Virus record (IMG/VR): IMGVR_UViG_3300011741_000001
Location: 1-64,000 of that record
Direction: 5' to 3' (one strand)
DNA length: 64,000 nucleotides
Origin: an uncultured virus (IMG/VR IMGVR_UViG_3300011741_000001)
Taxonomy: Duplodnaviria > Heunggongvirae > Uroviricota > Caudoviricetes
Both the position numbers and the translations under genes were made by a program. How positions within the stretch are numbered: the stretch's first letter is position 1; the number at the start of each line of letters is the position of its first letter. This document shows, in pieces, positions 28,656 to 36,819 of the stretch. The notes under the pieces are model-generated. The model did no database searches. It saw only the letters and a program-made list of their open reading frames with translations, and was not told the DNA's origin.

Positions 28656-28731
28656 TGGCGACTCTGGGAGGGCTCGAACCTCCGACATATGGATTAACAG
28701 TCCACCGTTCTACCGACTGAACTACAGAGTC
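28656..28731 (-). tRNA. tRNA-Asn(GTT)
   Basis: Full cloverleaf GACTCTG...GTGGA-CTGTTAA-TCCAT...CAGAGTC-G-CCA. Confidence 0.95.
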
Positions 28732-28851
28732 TAAATTAGTGGTCGCTTGCCCGCTGACATGTCAGCGGACTTCATCTGGGGCCTTGCCCCAAACGTTAAC
28801 ACCCCGCGAACCGAGGATTCGTCAAGAGGGGATGATCCTTTCAACGTGTGT

Positions 28852-28929
28852 AGGCGAGCACCTGGCTGGAATCGAACCAGCGAATATCCGATTATGAGTC
28901 GGGTGTTAACCAACTTAACAGCAGGGCTC
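28852..28929 (-). pseudogene. Degenerate tRNA with CAT anticodon (Met/Ile2-like)
   Basis: Intact T-arm GCTGG-TTCGATT-CCAGC and CCGA-CTCATAA-TCGG arm; bulged acceptor stem, atypical D-arm, ends CCT. Confidence 0.7.
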
Positions 28930-28930
28930 T

Positions 28931-29001
28931 TGCTCCAGCCGGAATCGAACCGGCGACCTCAGGGATTCTTCCCAGTATTCTACCAACAGAACTATGGAGC
29001 C
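28931..29001 (-). pseudogene. tRNA-like element with non-canonical anticodon loop, no CCA
   Basis: GCTCCA/TGGAGC acceptor, D-arm with TGGTAGAA, T-arm GCCGG-TTCGATT-CCGGC; anticodon arm GGGA-AGAA-TCCC lacks a 7-nt U33 loop. Confidence 0.7.
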
Positions 29002-29004
29002 TTA

Positions 29005-29224
29005 ATAGGGCGACACCGCTCCGAATCCCACGGAGTTATTTAGCTGCACTGAGCGACCTTTCCCATTTGTTGCCTCTGACGAGAATGGAAACGGTGGATG
29101 CTCTTATAGGCTGCCATCCCTCTAATGCCGCCGAAGCGCGCGATGGGGACAGTGTCATTGTAAGGTGAGCGCTCGGTATCTAAACCAGTTAACCAAATGG
29201 TGACACCCTGCAGAGTGTCTCTAT
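29005..29224. ncRNA. Candidate 220-nt structured RNA
   Basis: Ends pair (ATAGGGcGACAC/GTGTCTCTAT); internal CTGAGCG-ACCTT/AAGGT..CGCTCGG and CTCCG/CGGAG stems. Confidence 0.45.
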
Positions 29225-29247
29225 TCAGATTACACGCTCATTGATGC

Positions 29248-29323
29248 TGGTTGCATCTACTGGACTTGAACCAGTGACCTCACCCTTATCAGGGGTGCGC
29301 TCTACCAACTGAGCTAAGACGCA
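29248..29323 (-). tRNA. tRNA-Ile(GAT)
   Basis: Cloverleaf, CACCC-CTGATAA-GGGTG, encoded CCA. Confidence 0.95.
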
Positions 29324-29330
29324 AACGTAA

Positions 29331-29420
29331 TGGCGGAGAATGTTGGATTCGAACCAACGGTACCCTTACGGATACACTCCCTTAGCAGGGGAGCGACTTA
29401 AGCCACTCATCCAATTCTCC
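29331..29420 (-). tRNA. tRNA-Ser(GCT)
   Basis: Class II long variable arm, CTCCC-CTGCTAA-GGGAG, GCCA end. Confidence 0.95.
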
Positions 29421-29425
29421 AGATA

Positions 29426-29500
29426 TGGCAGGACTGACGGGTTTCGAACCCGCGACCTCCGCCGTGACAGGGCGGCGTTCTCCCACTGAACTACAGTCCT
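29426..29500 (-). tRNA. tRNA-Asp(GTC)
   Basis: CCGCC-CTGTCAC-GGCGG, GCCA end. Confidence 0.95.
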
Positions 29501-29651
29501 AAAGATGACGCTGCTTGCATGTTGTAGTCGACAACACACTCGAGTCAGGATTGTTTCGCCCCGACCGGACGATACTCCCCGCAGACAAAGGAATCCCGAC
29601 GGCGCTAGTAGAGGAGACTAATCCTTAACCGCAGGCCATCGTTCTTGTATT

Positions 29652-29736
29652 TGGTGGCGTGTGGTGGACTCGAACCACCGAAGACCGAAGTCAACAGATT
29701 TACAGTCTGCTCTCGTTGCCGCTTGAGTAACCCGCC
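29652..29736 (-). tRNA. tRNA-Tyr(GTA)
   Basis: GCAGA-CTGTAAA-TCTGT, long variable arm, ACCA end; one G.A mismatch in the acceptor stem. Confidence 0.92.
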
Positions 29737-29839
29737 GAATGGGTGCCAGCTACTGTGATGGTGTTGATAGAGGCGGTTGAACTCAGGAGAGGTAAACGCA
29801 CACACCAGTACAGCTGCCGACATAATAATTATTACAAGA

Positions 29840-29924
29840 GGGCTATGCTGTGGAATTGAACCACCACAACGCTGACGTCCATTTGCCTGCCGTCATTGTT
29901 GCATCACGCCGACGTGACATAACC
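29840..29924 (-). ncRNA. tRNA-shaped RNA with extended anticodon-position arm
   Basis: GGTTATG/CATAGCC acceptor, TCACG-TCGG-CGTGA arm, GCAAC..TGACG/CGTCA..GTTGT long arm, GTGG-TTCAATT-CCAC T-arm. Confidence 0.6.
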
Positions 29925-30022
29925 ATTGCACATATCTGATAAGATAAACTGTTGTAAGAACAACCACTTAGCTTATCACACATGCTCTTCGCATAATACT
30001 AGGTAAACCTGTAATTAAACTT

Positions 30023-30098
30023 TGGAGCGAGTGATGGGTTTCGAACCCACGGCCTTCTGGTTGGGAACCAGACGCTCTGCCGACTGAGCTACACTCGC
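30023..30098 (-). tRNA. tRNA-Gly(CCC)
   Basis: GCG start, TCTGG-TTCCCAA-CCAGA, U73 discriminator plus CCA. Confidence 0.95.
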
Positions 30099-30100
30099 AA

Positions 30101-30185
30101 TGGTACCGGAGGCGGGGGTCGAACCCGCATGACCTAAGCCGAGGGATTTTAAATCCCTTGTATATACCAATTTCACCACTCCGGT
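30101..30185 (-). tRNA. tRNA-Leu(TAA)
   Basis: AGGGA-TTTAAAA-TCCCT, long variable arm, ACCA end. Confidence 0.95.
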
Positions 30186-30276
30186 ATTAACTGGGGTTGA
30201 TGGACTTCTTCTTCTGAGCCTGTCCGCGGACAGGTCTTAGCGCCTCCAAGCACCAACCCCGATTACTTTTCAATTC

Positions 30277-30755
30277 GTGACGTCCCGGCCGTTTGAGGTA
30301 CCGCGTCAACTGCAGCACACAGCTGCTCGTTCGCATCTGGGAACTTAATCCCATCAGTTAGATTCAGATTGTGGGTTAGGGTTGCCTATGTCAGCGAGTC
30401 GGCTTAATGGGCCGGTGCTTGACCTTCGTCCGTAACGGACACCTGAGGTGAGGACTTGCGTCCTGAAACAGGTTTATGGCGTTCAGTCCCACTGCCTGCT
30501 AACCAATTGCTATCGAGTCGCCACATGCGCATGTTCGCCAGAACGCTTCTCAGCAGCCCCAGCGTGTGATGCACAAATGCTCGAAACATAAGTAAGTACC
30601 TAATGGTGACGTAACGGTCGGGGTACCTGCCTCCGCAGAAACAGTGCTTTGTGTACCCCGGCTAAACAGGACTTACGGGTGTGCCTGTTGTCTACGCTTG
30701 CTCCCCAGCACGAAAGCAGACCGTTCCGGCGGGTTATCAGCCCTGACCGGGAGTT
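30277..30755. ncRNA. Candidate ~480-nt structured non-coding RNA (possibly two domains)
   Basis: No credible ORF; stems GTCCG/CGGAC, ACCTG..AGGAC/GTCCT..CAGGT, CGGGGTAC/GTACCCCG, AACAGG/CCTGTT, TGGGA/TCCCA. Confidence 0.55.
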
Positions 30756-30766
30756 GTCCGAAAAAC

Positions 30767-31597
30767 CTATTTGTCGGTGCCGAGGATACGAGACTGATTC
30801 TTCAGCAGAATCGTCGACACCGCATCAAGCAGTTCATCACTGGCGTTGTTGTTGGCAACCACCAGAGTCGTGGTGCACGGAACGTCTACCTTACCGCCGA
30901 AGAAATCGCTGTTGACGCGCGCGGACTCTTTGGTGTACACGGATTGGCCGTTAGGCAGTTTGTCGTTCACGTTCCACGTGGACATGTCAATCAGTTGCAG
31001 CCCAGAGCTGTCCTGATTCACCGCGTCCAGAAACTTGTTATTCTTGCCCGCTGCAGAAACCCACAGGAACGCATCGTATTCGCCGGTGGCCACTTTGGCT
31101 AACGAACGGATACCGCCTTTGGCGTACGTTTCCGCTTTCGAGTATTCTTTCACCAGTTGCTGCAGATACTGCCAGCTGGCATACGAACCAGAGTCCGGGT
31201 CGCCCACGGCAATCTTCGCGCCGTTGGACAGGTCAGCAGCTTTGGTGATTTTGCCGTCTTTCTTCACGGCTACCCAGACGCACTCTTTGGAGAGCTGGCC
31301 GACGATGTCGACGTTCTGTGCTTCGTTCGGGTGCTTAGAGCGCCAGAACTGGAAAGCATCCGCCTGCGTGAAACCAATCTGCGCTTCGTTGGCGGCGACT
31401 TTGTCCAGATTGTCAATCGACCCTTTGGACGGGACAACCTGTGACTTGTTACCGAATTCGTTCAGGGCTCCGGCGAGGTTAACACCGTAAACCGAGTTGT
31501 ACGTCAAACCTTGCTGACCCGTGGTAATCACCACGTCTTCGCCGGCCACGACAGAAAAACTGAGGAACGCCAATACTCCAATGAGTAACTTTCTCAT
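30767..31597 (-). CDS. TAXI-family (TRAP-associated) periplasmic solute-binding protein
   Basis: Sec signal peptide; motifs ITTGQQGLTY, SKGSIDNL, IGFTQAD, AVGDPDSGS, GEYDAF. Confidence 0.85.
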   Translation of the reverse strand: MRKLLIGVLAFLSFSVVAGEDVVITTGQQGLTYNSVYGVNLAGALNEFGNKSQVVPSKGSIDNLDKVAANEAQIGFTQADAFQFWRSKHPNEAQNVDIVGQLSKECVWVAVKKDGKITKAADLSNGAKIAVGDPDSGSYASWQYLQQLVKEYSKAETYAKGGIRSLAKVATGEYDAFLWVSAAGKNNKFLDAVNQDSSGLQLIDMSTWNVNDKLPNGQSVYTKESARVNSDFFGGKVDVPCTTTLVVANNNASDELLDAVSTILLKNQSRILGTDK

Positions 31598-31652
31598 GAT
31601 TATACCTTTTTAAAATTGAGAAGCGGTGCGGGGGAACGTCCACGCACACGTA

Positions 31653-31835
31653 TCAGACTTTTGTTCGCTTTGCGGTCAGCTTGGCGAGCAACGGCCTGAT
31701 GAGGGGCCAACCAAAGTACGCTACTGCTGCCACCACCACGAGAATCGCGGTGAGGTACATAATGCGACCGATGAAATTGCCGAGCAACATCAGCAGCAAG
31801 GCTGCGACGATGTACAACTTGGTTTTCAGTTTCAT
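31653..31835 (-). CDS. Small membrane protein with two TM segments
   Basis: 60 aa, two hydrophobic segments, basic termini. Confidence 0.7.
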   Translation of the reverse strand: MKLKTKLYIVAALLLMLLGNFIGRIMYLTAILVVVAAVAYFGWPLIRPLLAKLTAKRTKV

Positions 31836-31884
31836 GTTACATCCCGTTAAGGATTGGGGGTGGTGGGCCGAAGCCCACCGTTAT

Positions 31885-32127
31885 CTAGCCATTGAGAAAC
31901 GACGTGTGTACGATGCCTTCCGGCAGGTCGCAAGTACCCAACAGCTTGCAGCTCAACTTCTCAGTATCATCGCATGCTCTGTCAGGACACCAACCACCGG
32001 GTGGACGAATTGCTCGGGCAGCGCCTTCCGAAGGAGCCGCGACCACTATGGAATCAAATTCGTCGTACCACATCTCGTCCAGTCGTTCCAGCAAATACAA
32101 GTTCATGTTAACCTCCGCAATTGACAA
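31885..32127 (-). CDS. Small phage hypothetical protein (start likely ATG 32106)
   Basis: GGAGG RBS before MNLYLLER; YDEFDSIVVAAPSE..AR pattern; UUCG hairpin downstream. Confidence 0.7.
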   Translation of the reverse strand: MSIAEVNMNLYLLERLDEMWYDEFDSIVVAAPSEGAARAIRPPGGWCPDRACDDTEKLSCKLLGTCDLPEGIVHTSFLNG

Positions 32128-32165
32128 TCAGGTCATCGCTGGGTTCTGGACTTGTAGGCTAAATT

Positions 32166-32366
32166 TTATTTGCTCTTGCCGCGTTTCTTCGGCTTGAGGA
32201 TAACCTGAATCGTGCCCACGGATTTCGCAGTCACGTTTGCAAACGTATCGTACAACGATTTGCCCTTGTCGGGTTCGTCGTCCAAACACAGACGGGCACC
32301 ACCGCGTTTTATAAACCGACGATTGGTCTCCGCGTCATGGATAAACACCATGTCGGTCTTTGCCAC
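32166..32366 (-). CDS. Small basic hypothetical protein
   Basis: GAGGT RBS 7 nt before GTG 32366; the track ATG at 32399 coincides with a TATG promoter motif. Confidence 0.6.
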   Translation of the reverse strand: MAKTDMVFIHDAETNRRFIKRGGARLCLDDEPDKGKSLYDTFANVTAKSVGTIQVILKPKKRGKSK

Positions 32367-32423
32367 GGGTAGTACCTCGCTCAATTGCGCTCTTCGCATA
32401 ACTTAGCGCAAGCTTGTAAAAAA

Positions 32424-32934
32424 TAATTCAGCTGGGTACCGGCGCTTCGCAGCGTGGGCACCCACCCCTCTCGTCTAGTTCCGAGCCGCCAAGATTGGAT
32501 CACTCTCCTCAGGTGATTCGTCTGGAAACTGGCCTCACTCTGGGGAACCGGATAACCACCGTGGGCTGCAACGCCACCACGGGCCCGAACGCAGACTCCT
32601 GCGTTGGTTACCCAATCAAATCCAAAGCTGCCACGGTACCGGCGCACGGACGACTCCGTGTGTGCCCAAACTGCCACGTCGCAACGAGCAGCCCGGCGGG
32701 CAGGTACCTGAAACTCCGCGCCCCCTAAGCGCGGTAACGTGTTGCCCCGTTTTCCAGTGTCCTCGTGGGAAGGCACTCGAAAAAGAGCCCGTGGCGAGAC
32801 GGGCAAGCGTAAGTGACTGGTGGAAAGGTCCAGTCGAAGTCTACCACTGGCTGGTAGTCGGAATCGGGTATGGCCATAGGTAATACCTAACCCGTGAATC
32901 GTGTCTCGGTTGTCGACTCAGGGGATTCGAATTG
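32424..32934 (-). ncRNA. Candidate ~510-nt highly structured non-coding RNA
   Basis: More than 12 stems tiling the interval; TATG promoter motif at the right boundary, U-tract at the left boundary. Confidence 0.65.
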
Positions 32935-32969
32935 CATAGTAATACCCACACCCCTGTAAAAAATCCACA

Positions 32970-33280
32970 GGGTACGATCCCGATCCTGATCTCGAACTAG
33001 TAATAAGGATCACACGCGCGGGGGCGCGGTTAAATGATCTTATTATTATAATTATAATAAATTATAATTAAATAATAATTTATATATAAAACAAAAAGAT
33101 CCCTGTAGGAAATGGCGTGTGCGCGCACACGCGTATATAGAAGAGATCCGATCGGTATCTAAGTGTTTGTTTTTAAAAGGTTTTTTGTTTAGTAGGATCG
33201 GTAAGGTTTAAGTAATTGATTTATAAGTATTTTTTAAGAAGGTTCTAGGAGAAAGGGTAGTGTAATCAATCACTTAGCCA
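32970..33280. other. Putative replication origin or packaging-initiation site
   Basis: 52-bp pure A/T tract 33040-33091, nine GATC, two perfect IHF consensus sites. Confidence 0.55.
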
Positions 33281-33687
33281 AAAGCTCAGAGAATCGCTTT
33301 TGAACGCTAAGCCAGTTAAGATCCCGAGAGACGCGCAAGCGCACCCCAACGTACGATCCTCGGCGTGGCGGCGGCCATCCGGACGGCTCGACGGCCAAAC
33401 GGGATTTCGCACCCCGGCGGATTTCGATTTGGCAAAATGCATCCCCGTCAACGCCCCCATACCCCCTCTCAGACGTCCTGTACGCCACGCTGTTGCATTT
33501 TCTCAGGGTAAGGAACCCAAACGTACCGGGTCAAAACTGCGCGTCTTAAATCGCGTTACAGACAGTCTTTTCAAGTGACTCAAATGTTGGTTAAAAAATG
33601 AGCAATCCTTAGTGCCACTAGGTGCCGGAGTCAAAAAAAAAATAAAGTGAGCTGGACCACCCACAAGGAGAGGTCCAGCATCGGCTT

Positions 33688-34191
33688 TTAGTCATGAATC
33701 ATGTTACCGTTCATCGCTAAGTGCACGGGTTTGACGTAGATACCCGCCTCCCCGAAGTGGTTGATTTCCCAACGGTTAAACGTCAACAGTTCCAGAGGAA
33801 CGTCGACACCATTCCGGTTAAGATACTCCCAGACACCTTCGAAGCGTTCTTTGGAGACAAACATCATCCCACCGGCAAAGCCTGAACCGAAGTCGAGAAA
33901 GTTCCCGAGTCCAGTTGCAAACGACCCGACACCGTCCTGTGTGAGCGCAATTGCCCCGGCAACGATCCCGGGTTGGTTGGTCATGAGGGCGCAGAGTTCT
34001 ACCACGGTCAAACGTCCTGCGATACGACGGAGAACCGCCGCAGCTGCTAACATCTGTGCTGTGTTAAACGTGCTGATAGACTGATGACTTAAGATTGCGG
34101 TGACGATATTAGTGTCACAGAGTTCCACCAGACGGCGGTCTTGACAAATAATGTTCACTGCCGGTTCCATGGTTGGTGTTGCAGCTAACAT
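33688..34191 (-). CDS. Hypothetical protein
   Basis: 167 aa, AGGAG RBS, terminator at about 33651-33679. Confidence 0.7.
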   Translation of the reverse strand: MLAATPTMEPAVNIICQDRRLVELCDTNIVTAILSHQSISTFNTAQMLAAAAVLRRIAGRLTVVELCALMTNQPGIVAGAIALTQDGVGSFATGLGNFLDFGSGFAGGMMFVSKERFEGVWEYLNRNGVDVPLELLTFNRWEINHFGEAGIYVKPVHLAMNGNMIHD

Positions 34192-34203
34192 GACGTTATA
34201 CTC

Positions 34204-35358
34204 CTATGCAATGAGAGGCTGCGCGCTCGGATCAGTGTGATCCGTGTATCTCAGGGCGATACGTCGCAGACTGTACCCCGTGGCGTAATAGATATTATCG
34301 CTTACGCTACGGATAAAGCCTTCTGGGTCTATTACGTCAACCGAGAAAGGCGAGTCAAATCTCCAGTGTTCGATTTTACCGCCCACTTCGAACTCCGCCC
34401 CATAAACACCGGGGGAGTCGTCTGGTCGGAAGGTGAACAGGGTCGTGCCGGATTCCTTATCCACGCCAGAAATTAACAGTGAAGGCTCATGATGTAGGGT
34501 GACTGTTGCTCGGGAACAACGCGTACTCGTGAGCGATGCACTGTACTTTTTCTCAGGTGCCGGGAACAAGTAATCGACATCGTATGGTGCCTGTTCGTAT
34601 TCGCCCATGTTGTCAAGGCTAATACTTCTGAACACGATTGGAGATTTGTAGTTGCACAGTCGATGCCCTTCCGTGAACATCGTGTACTGAACTTTTACCG
34701 CTGTACCGATAAGGTCAGCCGGCTTCAGTTTGTAATGCGTCAATTGACCTTGAATACGTTTGGAAACCTTGTTCACCAGAAAGACGTTATTGTTGGTGCA
34801 ACGAAGCACAAACCCGTTCTTAGTGACGTCGATGATAGTCGCGTCGATTTTTCTGGCAGGTTCCAACCGGTAACGCTGCCCGTTGTCACGCTCCACCTCA
34901 AACAGCGAGATGTGTTGACCACGGGATTTCATGCCAACGGTGCTTATCACATCGCTGGCGTGAATCTGAATCGGTTCGATCACTTCGACCTGAACCGGGA
35001 GAATGGAGGTCGGGCGCTGACTGAACGTCGTAACGGTAATCGTCTTGAGTTTCTTCTCAGCATCCTCGACAGGTTGACTTAACCACCACGTTAACCAACG
35101 CGCGGTGTTCTGCGGAATGATTTCGGTGGTGTGGACAATGATGTGTCCTTTGATGCCCGCGTCCAGTAGCATCTTGGCCAGCAAGGCGTTCACACACATG
35201 TGTTCACCGTTGACCAGTACAGGCAGTCCTTCCACCACGCGGACTTCGCAAATGCAGCCGTGCGGGTGTACCCACAGCTTCACCATTTCATCAGCGGGGA
35301 TAACCTGATTTCGCAGGTGGGCATGCCAATCGGCCTTGCGTAAGATTTCGTTGCTCAT
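34204..35358 (-). CDS. Hypothetical protein resembling a degenerate ATP-dependent DNA ligase (OB-fold-like segment)
   Basis: AAGGAG RBS, early promoter at 35411; LIGTAVKVQY..T.....SPIVFR resembles ligase OB/motif VI; no KxDG. Confidence 0.6.
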   Translation of the reverse strand: MSNEILRKADWHAHLRNQVIPADEMVKLWVHPHGCICEVRVVEGLPVLVNGEHMCVNALLAKMLLDAGIKGHIIVHTTEIIPQNTARWLTWWLSQPVEDAEKKLKTITVTTFSQRPTSILPVQVEVIEPIQIHASDVISTVGMKSRGQHISLFEVERDNGQRYRLEPARKIDATIIDVTKNGFVLRCTNNNVFLVNKVSKRIQGQLTHYKLKPADLIGTAVKVQYTMFTEGHRLCNYKSPIVFRSISLDNMGEYEQAPYDVDYLFPAPEKKYSASLTSTRCSRATVTLHHEPSLLISGVDKESGTTLFTFRPDDSPGVYGAEFEVGGKIEHWRFDSPFSVDVIDPEGFIRSVSDNIYYATGYSLRRIALRYTDHTDPSAQPLIA

Positions 35359-35445
35359 GATAAAAACTCCTTAAGTTTTAAAAAGATATATAGGCGATAC
35401 TATCACATGGATAATATCTATCCGTAAAAAGTTAGAGGTTGGGCT

Positions 35446-36819
35446 ATGTCTGAACTGAAATACAACTTTGCTGAAGGCGGGTATAGTCTGGCTAATCAGC
35501 AACTTGCCACAGAATCCCGCACGTTCGATGCAGATGCCGACACGTTCGACGGCGATGGCCTCATTTACGACTTCGGCTTCGGGGGCTATATCCCTGCCGG
35601 ACAGATTGTTGCTGGGGAATCCACAAAGAATGACTCGTTACGTAAAGTGTTTGACGAGGTGTTTAAAAAGGTTGAGTTCAACAAACAACTGTACAAACGC
35701 ATCATGTATTACGTCTCCGGGGTGTTCTCCCGTGAGGGTAACGTGGAATGGTTTGGTTCGAATCTGTTAGGGGTGCACACCATTCGCTTCTTCGACACCG
35801 ACCGTTACGCGTTGTTCGATCAGGTGTTCGTGGTGGACGAGGATTACCTCACCGAACGGATGCGCGAAACCAACGCCATTGACATGTCATGGAAAGTGGC
35901 GGCTGACCCGTTCAACATGATGATTGCGTATTCCATTCACCGCCTGATTCCGTTATTCGGTGACAAAGACGCCTACCGGGCAGCAGTGGAACTGGTGAAA
36001 CTCTTGCAGTTTAAATTCTACTCGAGTATCTACTACCACTTCTTCCCGAAACCGGTCGACATGCCCGCGGCGGAAGCCACGTACTCACAGCTCTCCCTGA
36101 AGTTTGACATCCGTCGCGTGGGGAACTGGGGCATGCACGTGCAGGAACGTGCGGAAGCGTTCGTGTCCAAAGACTACCCGAACTACGATGCGATTAAACG
36201 CTTTGACAACCCCGCGTTGCTGATTCGTTTTATCACGGACTTGAACACCCGTACCAAACAAACCGTGAAGGATTACTACGCAGTGTTAGACCGGGTGCGG
36301 CGTGAGAACAGCCGCGTGATTACCCAAAGCTCCCGTGTGGAACTCGACGGGGAATCCATTATCCGTGACAAAGTAACCGCGTTTAACACGGCCAAGCAAA
36401 ACCTGTTCGACGCCTCGTACAGCATCAACAACCTCTACAAAGAGGAGCTGGCGCGGGTGGTACTGGAGATGGTGCCGAAGGCATCCCCGAACGCCTTAAA
36501 AACGTTATTGCTGTATATTACGAAAGCCCCACTGGGCAAGAAACGTCAAGAGGTAGAGTCCATCATGGAAGACGCGATTTCCCATGCGTTTGACTTGATT
36601 GTGGCGAACCGGATTAACTTCACCGATGTCGCAGCTTTGCTCAATCGGATGCGGGCGCTGTACCAAGCGGCCAAGTCCTCGAACGAGCATGTGTTGTCGT
36701 TGCGTAAACGGATTGAAGCGTTAGCGAAAAAAGAGACCCACCTGACCCATGACTCTGCTCTGGGTGCTTTACGAACGGCGCTGTTGTTGTACTTTCTCGT
36801 GCGTGCTATTGCAGTCTAA
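35446..36819 (+). CDS. Conserved virion (probably head) protein
   Basis: 457 aa, GAGG RBS; N-terminal A-x-E sites (ATE, AGE); bidirectional terminator at 36833-36863. Confidence 0.7.
   Translation: MSELKYNFAEGGYSLANQQLATESRTFDADADTFDGDGLIYDFGFGGYIPAGQIVAGESTKNDSLRKVFDEVFKKVEFNKQLYKRIMYYVSGVFSREGNVEWFGSNLLGVHTIRFFDTDRYALFDQVFVVDEDYLTERMRETNAIDMSWKVAADPFNMMIAYSIHRLIPLFGDKDAYRAAVELVKLLQFKFYSSIYYHFFPKPVDMPAAEATYSQLSLKFDIRRVGNWGMHVQERAEAFVSKDYPNYDAIKRFDNPALLIRFITDLNTRTKQTVKDYYAVLDRVRRENSRVITQSSRVELDGESIIRDKVTAFNTAKQNLFDASYSINNLYKEELARVVLEMVPKASPNALKTLLLYITKAPLGKKRQEVESIMEDAISHAFDLIVANRINFTDVAALLNRMRALYQAAKSSNEHVLSLRKRIEALAKKETHLTHDSALGALRTALLLYFLVRAIAV

Follow-up and report, generated by a model that had tools for sequence, protein, structure and literature searches.

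Which product, if any, is specified by 1.29 kb of phage DNA in which no credible genes are found? This question is raised by positions 32400-33687 of a 64-kb window, i.e., the initial 64 kb of the 239.5-kb virus record IMGVR_UViG_3300011741_000001 from IMG/VR. Flanked by an open reading frame (ORF) of 77 aa (32166-32399) and a gene of 167 aa (33688-34191), both on the minus strand, the gene-free region consists of three parts, namely a GC-rich part (32424-32934), an AT-rich part (~32983-33260), and a second GC-rich part. A first-pass annotation had described the first of these as a discrete large non-coding RNA (ncRNA), encoded by the minus strand and of unknown class, possibly a primer or regulator for an adjacent origin or else a scaffold. 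Our analysis confirmed the observation of a structured RNA gene and supported the interpretation in part. With high confidence, the GC-rich part is a real gene for a structured ncRNA, and we consider it probable that this gene encodes a large, compactly folded RNA of a family conserved in Chimalliviridae, which is transcribed from a phage promoter and acts in trans. Among named phages, the Erwinia phages Kwan, Wellington, and pEa_SNUABM_11 (Wellingtonvirus) are closest, and the SPN3US group comes next; the NCBI taxonomy places the genera Seoulvirus, Erskinevirus, Machinavirus, and Wellingtonvirus in Chimalliviridae.

Conservation and covariation of the RNA

Comparison via blastn, which the first-pass annotation had proposed together with a comparison against Rfam, matched the left ~95 nt of the RNA gene (32415-32511) in 50 phage records (Salmonella 26, Erwinia 20, Escherichia 2, Proteus 1, Enterobacteria 1), and the interior of the RNA aligned to the closest relatives only. 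Motif scans with a near-invariant block of 28-30 nt as the pattern resulted in 12 loci in IMG/VR, one contig among species-representative genomes, and 28 metagenomic loci, the last comprising eight true members and 20 chance matches without the hairpin. After removal of duplicates, 18 distinct sequences were obtained in total. A search for further IMG/VR loci via a 384-aa neighbor protein gave 27 pattern matches, none of which was confirmed. Among 5,426 E. coli genomes, blastn matched no chromosome and only a 222-kb 'plasmid', itself a member of the family; a host sequence as target of mimicry or antisense pairing was therefore rejected.

All 18 distinct sequences possess a GNRA tetraloop in the hairpin at the 3' end (GCGA, GAGA, GUGA, or GGGA), so that N is represented by all four bases; on the plus strand, this loop would read UCNC. 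Pairing in the 3' domain (alignment A2, 17 sequences) amounted to 98.5%, and in the GNRA hairpin, two-sided changes were seen at 8 of 12 pairs. Neither the pairing nor the covariation score was matched by any of 500 shuffles, and when the partner was slid by 1-3 columns, the pairing fell to 34-50%. For the 3' half from a conserved junction strand to the 3' end (alignment A5, 12 sequences), the pairing was 98.1% with two-sided changes in 18/45 pairs, the 500 shuffles failed on all five measures, and the slid controls reached 33-47%. Two-sided changes were also detected in the first core domain (6/18 pairs, RNAalifold), and 20 of 128 pairs covary in the Wellington-type group of four sequences that includes the window. 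A CCGY/RCGG helix suggested by RNAalifold was discarded, as its only variable pair was lost to a better-supported YGGY/RCCR helix. Read on the opposite strand, 39 cells of the 3' hairpin would be A.C mismatches in place of G.U pairs, which marks the minus strand as the one under selection.

Could the same conservation be that of a protein? Open frames of 35-165 codons are present in all six frames of the GC-rich stretch, the records of Kwan, Huxley, Asesino, and phiEaH2 annotate small ORFs there, and in the window an ORF of 141 aa (32381-32806) runs over the RNA. Six-frame similarities between relatives, however, were found in every frame, and the frame changes from relative to relative. The 141-aa ORF has no Pfam or PHROG match, and substitutions track base-pairing, not codons. 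In addition, insertions make the near-invariant block longer by 2 nt in the window and by 1 nt in three SPN3US-type sequences, and such indels inside an otherwise invariant block exclude coding. For practical purposes, the protein-coding reading is refuted, and in view of frame switching, indels, and missing matches, the small ORFs annotated in the four phages are probably spurious. The same insertions break a 20-codon ORF (UUG...UGA) after a Shine-Dalgarno-like motif, which was rejected as well.

Searches against Rfam 15 revealed nothing but tRNAs, both by cmscan of 30000-36000 at E<=1 and over the whole window at gathering score, and the same was true for the homologues from SPN3US, Huxley, and the 222-kb 'plasmid' (L053). 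At E<=10, the only match to 32380-33000 was a chance hit to mir-202 with 17 bits compared to a gathering score of 51. Unmatched families include RNase P, tmRNA, SRP, 6S, group I/II introns, GOLLD, ROOL, OLE, HEARO, and riboswitches; ARAGORN did not find a tmRNA either. Thus, the RNA fits no catalogued RNA family, and together with the strong covariation this bears out the earlier view of a discrete large minus-strand ncRNA gene of no known class.

Anatomy of the RNA in the window

Read in the RNA sense (minus strand, 5' to 3' from 32935 down), the following features were identified.

32428..32935, minus strand: structured ncRNA from the predicted +1 to a conserved GCUGA, ~508 nt (conservation, covariation, no Rfam match, no conserved reading frame)
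32786..32934, minus strand: variable 5' domain with hairpins CUACCA/UGGUAG and GACUGG/CCAGUC (segment comparison, alignment)
32745..32804, minus strand: core domain 1, a GC hairpin GCCCG/CGGGC (32787-32804) and then a U-run/A-run helix, present in all 17 sequences with varying stem letters
32776-32785 with 32748-32755, minus strand: helix of core domain 1, in which CUUUUUCGAG pairs with GGAAAACG and encloses an inner hairpin
32703..32744, minus strand: single-stranded conserved motifs CAACAC (32739-32744) and UUCAGGUACC (32703-32712) with a local hairpin (32717-32733) between them, anchors in all members
32627..32640, minus strand: conserved junction strand GGUACCGUGGCAGC, whose GGUACC closes the helix opened by the second of these motifs
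UGGC with GCCA (32530-32533), minus strand: junction helix YGGY/RCCR, which closes the variable domain 32538-32626
32538..32626, minus strand: variable peripheral domain, GGGUAACC/GGUUAUCC around AACGCAG/CUGCGUU and CCGUGG/CCACGG
32495..32519, minus strand: hairpin B (32497-32519), GAUCAC/GUGAUC with a purine-rich loop, including CUGAGGAGAGUGAUCCAA (32495-32512), the complement of the 16S rRNA 3' tail
32465..32494, minus strand: near-invariant block UCUUGGCGGCUCGGAA(CU)AGACGAGAGGGG with a small hairpin CUCG/CGAG, invariant columns in 17 sequences; the insertion in the window lies in the loop of this hairpin
32433..32464, minus strand: 3' hairpin of 8 + 4 bp with a 2x2 internal loop and the GNRA tetraloop GCGA (32447-32450), supported by the loop in 18/18 sequences and by covariation
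32418..32432, minus strand: conserved GCUGA (32428-32432), then the U-run AUUAUUUUUU; CU of GCUGA pairs with GG of the invariant block (GU:12, GC:12)

The YGGY/RCCR helix was 100% paired in the 12-sequence alignment and contains two covarying pairs (UA:9 CG:3; CG:6 UA:5 UG:1); its version UGGC/GCCA is predicted in the W (Wellington-type) group. The 5' domain is partly common to Wellington-type relatives only and comprises ~40 nt in Machinavirus. At the position of 32538-32626, SPN3US-type relatives have a different domain with a conserved AACUUAC loop. This 7-nt loop, which has the size of an anticodon loop, sits on a covarying stem and is strictly conserved in SPN3US, Erskine, and Machina types (L002, L005, L007, L009, L013, L016, L006, L037, L045, and L053; A5 columns 65-77), with AGCUUAC in L013; it is absent from the Wellington-type RNA of the window. 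The U-run behind GCUGA is a possible signal for termination and at the same time supplies the AT box of the promoter that follows.

Every stem listed by the first-pass annotation was found in its place on the minus strand. Apart from the GNRA hairpin, these are GGGUAACC (32606-32613) with GGUUAUCC (32550-32557), AACGCAG (32599-32605) with CUGCGUU (32588-32594), CACGGA/UCCGUG (32645-32660), GCCCGU/ACGGGC (32787-32804), GACUGG/CCAGUC (32815-32835), CUACCA/UGGUAG (32841-32857), UAGGU/ACCUA (32877-32889), and UUCCGA (32858-32863) with UCGGAA (32479-32484); the repeat GGTACCGGCGC is present at 32435 and 32635. Four of its items may be due to chance, as relatives do not preserve them: UAGGU/ACCUA, UUCCGA/UCGGAA, the AAUUC/GAAUU pairing between the ends, and the GGTACCGGCGC repeat. 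Its boundaries (32424-32934) lie within a few bases of the predicted +1 at G 32935 and of GCUGA, the last conserved element. On their own, the stems of the single sequence prove little, and it is the comparative data that are decisive.

Size variation and distribution of the family

Measured from the TATG motif at the 5' edge to just past GCUGA, the RNA is 282 nt long in pEa_SNUABM_6, ~420 nt in Machinavirus, 516 nt in the window, 554-607 nt in Erskine and SPN3US types, and 730-757 nt in other Wellington types. This range is due entirely to peripheral domains, which are gained or lost between genera. The common core consists of the GC hairpin and U-run/A-run helix, CAACAC, UUCAGGU...GGUACCGYGGYAGC, and the YGGY/RCCR junction helix, followed by the near-invariant block of 28-30 nt, the GNRA-capped 3' hairpin, and GCUGA. 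In pEa_SNUABM_6 (L008 263-542), ~139 nt are lost between two UAGCCCC repeats, by which the whole AACUUAC domain and two hairpins are gone. Its 282-nt RNA may represent a natural minimal form, though an assembly error is conceivable for a single record.

In Kwan and Wellington, the loop of hairpin B accommodates an HNH ORF of ~0.6 kb without damage to any core motif; the RNA of the window has no such ORF. The HNH gene (Kwan L001 1205-1714, also Wellington L019, L011, and L034) has its own Shine-Dalgarno box next to the RNA's conserved 28-30-nt block, and it resembles a free-standing homing endonuclease with the conserved RNA gene as its landing site. An ORF in a terminal loop of an intact core is also the arrangement of intron-encoded homing endonucleases, and the RNA is patchily present across related genera, so that a self-splicing or mobile ribozyme (a relic or variant, group I/II-like) with the HNH protein as its own homing endonuclease was weighed. 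There is, however, no Rfam intron match even at E 10, and promoter motifs instead of flanking exons stand directly on both sides. Four sets of RNA-seq contigs over the SPN3US homologue show no joints, though contigs can miss rare forms, and the 3' hairpin with its 2x2 internal loop has no AGC triad and is thus unlike domain V of group II introns. Altogether, the intron reading is largely refuted and has a very small chance of being correct.

Divergent copies with identical 3' domains were detected in the 222-kb circular 'plasmid' of an E. coli isolate (L053, NZ_CP173450.1) and in a contig of a metagenome-assembled genome labeled Bacillota (L054). The gene order on the 'plasmid' is that of a jumbo phage (384-aa homologue, AT-rich gap, RNA, gene, tRNA-Ile), and the contig labeled Bacillota probably is a mis-binned phage contig.

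A covariance model of the 3' domain (R1) recovered the window (94 bits) and SPN3US (E 9e-27), with control matches at E 2e-22 and 9e-27. No match to R1 was obtained in three Derbicusvirus records (Derbicus, CR5, and Phobos) or in Vibrio phage pVa-21, all of which keep a homologue of the 384-aa gene, the next but one to the RNA, and none in fnug (phiKZ type), Ea35-70, and KpLz-2_45 (phiKZ-type, Agricanvirus, and Siatvirus records). A match in Yaphecito (14.5 bits, E 0.15) was dismissed as noise. The RNA thus occurs in four of the eight named genera tested, from a family of 33 direct taxa including 31 genera. Since the 3' domain is missing from the Derbicusvirus, Vibrio, phiKZ-type, Agricanvirus, and Siatvirus records, the RNA is not a universal component of chimalliviruses, and based on the distribution of R1 matches it appears as an accessory of one Enterobacterales-infecting clade.

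Promoter and transcription

Two promoter-like elements border the RNA gene.

32935..32970, minus strand: T-run (32958-32963)/TTACA box, 16 nt, and TATG (32935-32938), predicted +1 at G 32935
32397..32419, minus strand: second motif TTACAAG-N14-TATG, serving the downstream 77-aa ORF (motif scan)

The first corresponds to the TTTTTTACA...TATG motif noticed at the right edge (32935-32963), and the U-run noticed past the left edge was found at 32418-32426. The pattern TTACR-N13-18-TATG occurs 11 times in the window compared to 3.9 expected, a number that none of 100 shuffles reached, and all 11 sites (752-48221) are on the minus strand; this enrichment supports the promoter of its own that had been proposed for the RNA. 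All relatives examined share this motif at the RNA's 5' edge, and in every relative the second one is located directly past the RNA, ahead of the next gene; in SPN3US, a 5' untranslated region with a GGAG box and then an hslV-like gene come after the corresponding TATG. The pattern is a candidate middle/late promoter consensus of this phage clade. Two of its sites (29931-29957 and 29992-30014) are situated within a tRNA island. The start codon called for the 77-aa ORF belongs to a promoter-type TATG (32397-32400), so that this ORF either has a leaderless mRNA or truly starts at a Met 16 codons inward.

Late promoters of phiKZ are described as T(-3)ATG(+1), of which all four bases are needed in vitro, and its middle promoters as having a weak AT-rich motif near -24, according to a review on the polymerases of jumbo phages (PMC7598289). 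As the motif fits these rules, we infer transcription by the non-virion phage RNA polymerase (nvRNAP) from G 32935, and the RNA would be a middle or late transcript of this enzyme. Like phiKZ-type nvRNAP promoters, the element has TATG at the (here predicted) start and a T-run/TTACA box 14-16 nt upstream; in contrast to them, the TTACR box and the fixed spacing are specific to this clade.

Expression was followed in contigs of four RNA-seq runs from one study, which hold the SPN3US copy (L015). The first position of every contig falls within L015 327-335, i.e., 10-18 nt past a homologous T-run/TGTG motif, and carries an adapter-like loose end. From there, the contigs cover the RNA homologue (547-1136) and run on into the downstream genes without joints. 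The region is therefore present in RNA libraries, and a start site near 327-335 is hinted at; L015 1-326 is not covered, which says nothing on silence. SPN3US (L015 295-547), Asesino (L005), and Erskine types possess an extra unit of ~230 nt upstream of the core RNA with its own promoter-like motif, at which the contigs start, and two GC hairpins followed by U-runs. Moreover, a 79-nt record stands by itself in one run (X5) at high depth, flanked on either side by adapter-like letters (L015 1862-1940). It covers a hairpin and the start of the small gene after tRNA-Trp (fold z -2.6) and may reflect either a stable fragment or a break in the assembly.

Contigs that run unbroken from the promoter region through the RNA to the downstream genes and the tRNA-Trp region would suit a cis-acting leader. 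In that case, the RNA would form the beginning of a long transcript that extends leftward across small genes into the tRNA island, and it might act on transcript or polymerase as a processing platform, a stabilizer, or an antiterminator like the HK022 put RNA. Further support comes from the RNA always heading a same-strand block that holds tRNAs and from the lack of a canonical terminator after the 3' hairpin. The tRNA genes of the window (28656-30185) are located downstream of the RNA on the same strand; among the 17 relatives' loci scanned, tRNAs follow on the same strand in four (L002, L007, L009, and L010) at a distance of 0.6-1.5 kb, and L053 has a tRNA-Ile downstream. Against a leader stands the second promoter motif, which directly follows the RNA in every relative and makes the downstream genes independent of the RNA promoter. 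Moreover, the gene following the RNA varies between genera, 280-760 nt with ornate peripheral domains is far beyond the size of known cis antiterminator RNAs, and contigs cannot tell whether read-through dominates. A leader function, be it as platform, stabilizer, or antiterminator, therefore seems unlikely to us.

The AT-rich block and the origin idea

32983..33260, no strand: conserved AT-rich block that precedes the RNA promoter on its upstream side and contains GATC sites and GC-rich palindromes (composition, identity)

This block is 90% identical to pEa_SNUABM_11 over 32983-33147 and thereby better conserved than the interior of the RNA. GC-rich palindromes flank it, e.g., CGCGTGTGCGCGCACACGCG around 33115-33135, and GATC sites are numerous. 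Iterons were not detected in the block, only AT palindromes, and GATCCTTATTAC, tried as a recurring early-promoter box, was rejected with one exact copy. No RNA-seq contig was found on the homologous stretch of SPN3US, which is a weak observation. Candidate roles of the block are an origin, an early-promoter hub, or another function.

The proximity of this block had led to the proposal of a primer or regulator for the adjacent origin. ColE1 RNA II is a long, highly structured replication primer, and the RNA of the window resembles it in its length of ~0.5 kb, its high degree of structure, and its position next to conserved AT-rich DNA with GC-rich palindromes and GATC sites. It differs in being transcribed away from the AT-rich block, not toward or ending at an origin: the promoter lies between block and RNA, which is where the primer idea fails, and the 3' end of the RNA abuts a gene, not AT-rich DNA. 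Neither iterons nor anything else in this analysis marks the block as an origin, and Derbicusvirus has the flanking genes without the 3' domain. A transcript that primes or regulates replication here is thus very unlikely, and the RNA probably is no primer for the neighboring region.

Complementarity to the 16S rRNA tail

CUGAGGAGAGUGAUCCAA in hairpin B is predicted to form the strongest duplex with the 16S rRNA 3' tail in the whole 64 kb on both strands (RNAduplex, -23.1 kcal/mol; next -20.2). The best complement to a 15-nt motif, which we take to be that of the 16S 3' tail, was located at the same position, directly 5' of the invariant block, in 17/18 members, with a length of 13-17 nt and energies of -17.7 to -26.2 kcal/mol compared to about -14 +/- 2 for shuffles. 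Members share no conserved ORF after it. Like the Shine-Dalgarno sequence, it is a purine-rich GGAGGUGAUCC-like motif complementary to the 16S tail; unlike it, it is far longer than working ribosome-binding sites, precedes no conserved ORF, and is partly buried in a hairpin.

These features would fit an RNA that pairs with the whole single-stranded 16S tail and whose core sits on the 30S platform, either as a decoy or sponge for initiation or as a modulator favoring phage messages. Consistent with this, A/G changes (GUGAUC/GUGGUC) still pair to a fixed U, and the motif is kept irrespective of its placement, which is a loop in the window and Kwan and a stem in the SPN3US type. In such a docked state, the mRNA-binding platform would be taken up by the invariant block together with the GNRA hairpin. 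On the other side, the complementary segment is not raised in predicted accessibility (0.07-0.42 compared to an RNA mean of 0.32-0.39), the divergent copies L053 and L054 do not have the site, and the complement was noticed post hoc. Purines at junctions are commonly conserved in structured RNAs, related sequences are not independent, and the 16S motif was presumed. A phage-made ribosome-docking particle anchored to the host 30S subunit in this way, whether as decoy or modulator, is accordingly a tentative and rather improbable idea; if it were true, a nucleus-forming phage would sequester or reprogram cytoplasmic ribosomes late in infection.

Favored reading

On balance, we favor an RNA that acts in trans, since its context recalls GOLLD and ROOL, which are phage-borne and stand at the head of a same-strand tRNA block. 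According to this reading, the nvRNAP would transcribe the RNA from the AT-box/TATG promoter at G 32935 in the middle or late phase, and the product would work through its fold as a scaffold or ribonucleoprotein component, perhaps as a self-assembling particle as in other large phage RNAs adjoining tRNA genes. The most concrete molecular lead is the 16S-tail complement, which could dock the RNA on 30S subunits. The RNA behaves as an independent module, as the gene downstream varies between genera and the HNH insertion leaves the core intact.

Several results count against this picture, including the accessibility, the divergent copies, and the post hoc notice given for the 16S complement, as well as the records without R1 matches. 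The A5 controls are inflated because the structure tested was derived from the same alignment. The global fold is resolved in part only, and the invariant GGCGG has alternative partners (CCG of ACCG or the 5' CGCU), neither of which covaries. The 5' 150 nt are conserved in Wellington-type relatives only, and the minimum free energy z-score of the window RNA is modest (-2.1 on the minus and -1.5 on the plus strand). The RNA-seq contigs continue past the RNA and cannot reveal ends, strand, or abundance; furthermore, they come from an SPN3US-type relative and start at the extra upstream promoter, which is absent from the window.

Neighboring genes

Pfam and PHROG comparisons of the proteins encoded around the RNA gave no functional hint. 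Between the RNA and the tRNA island, a protein of 276 aa is encoded (30767-31597, minus strand), which is an unusual cargo at this place; its N-terminus has a signal-like segment, and its matches are to NMT1-like and phosphonate-type periplasmic substrate-binding families. Within the island, between tRNA-Asn and tRNA-Ile, 28857-28927 and 28930-29001 match tRNA models with 36 and 42 bits, respectively, and were not called by ARAGORN; they may be degenerate or unusual tRNAs.

Significance and comparison with known large RNAs

Nucleus-forming jumbo phages, which keep transcription apart from translation, have been studied intensely. In the literature, we found neither a description of this RNA nor a characterized large structured RNA of such phages. 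A 2026 review mentions no more than that phiKZ expresses non-coding RNAs (PMC13282480), and the main text of a catalogue of 10,006 viral RNA candidates, whose supplements may include the region, does not name jumbo phages, Erwinia, or SPN3US (PMC10690425). A conserved RNA of ~0.3-0.75 kb with ribozyme-grade architecture would add a class to the few large structured bacterial and phage RNAs; it has a predicted phage-polymerase promoter of its own, and one loop hosts a homing-endonuclease gene. It is a potential new player in host take-over, and SPN3US as a genetic model phage allows direct testing. By-products of this study are the clade promoter consensus TTACR-N13-18-TATG, ORF annotation corrections in several GenBank records, and the covariance model R1.

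With group I introns, the RNA shares a structured core that tolerates a 0.6-kb HNH ORF in a terminal loop (Kwan/Wellington) and variable peripheral domains; it differs from them in its own promoter and in the lack of exons, splice joints, and an Rfam intron match. GOLLD and ROOL (the latter presumably Rfam RF03087), which are ornate RNAs known from phages and prophages, are similar in their size class of ~0.5-0.8 kb, many helices, and conserved junctions. Like the RNA of the window, they are phage-borne, adjoin tRNA genes on the same strand, and have no function assigned. Differences concern the covariance models, neither of which the RNA of the window matches, and the hosts and phage type, which here are Enterobacterales and jumbo phages. 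Moreover, GOLLD and ROOL have been reported to form multimeric cages (10.1101/2024.12.08.627333).

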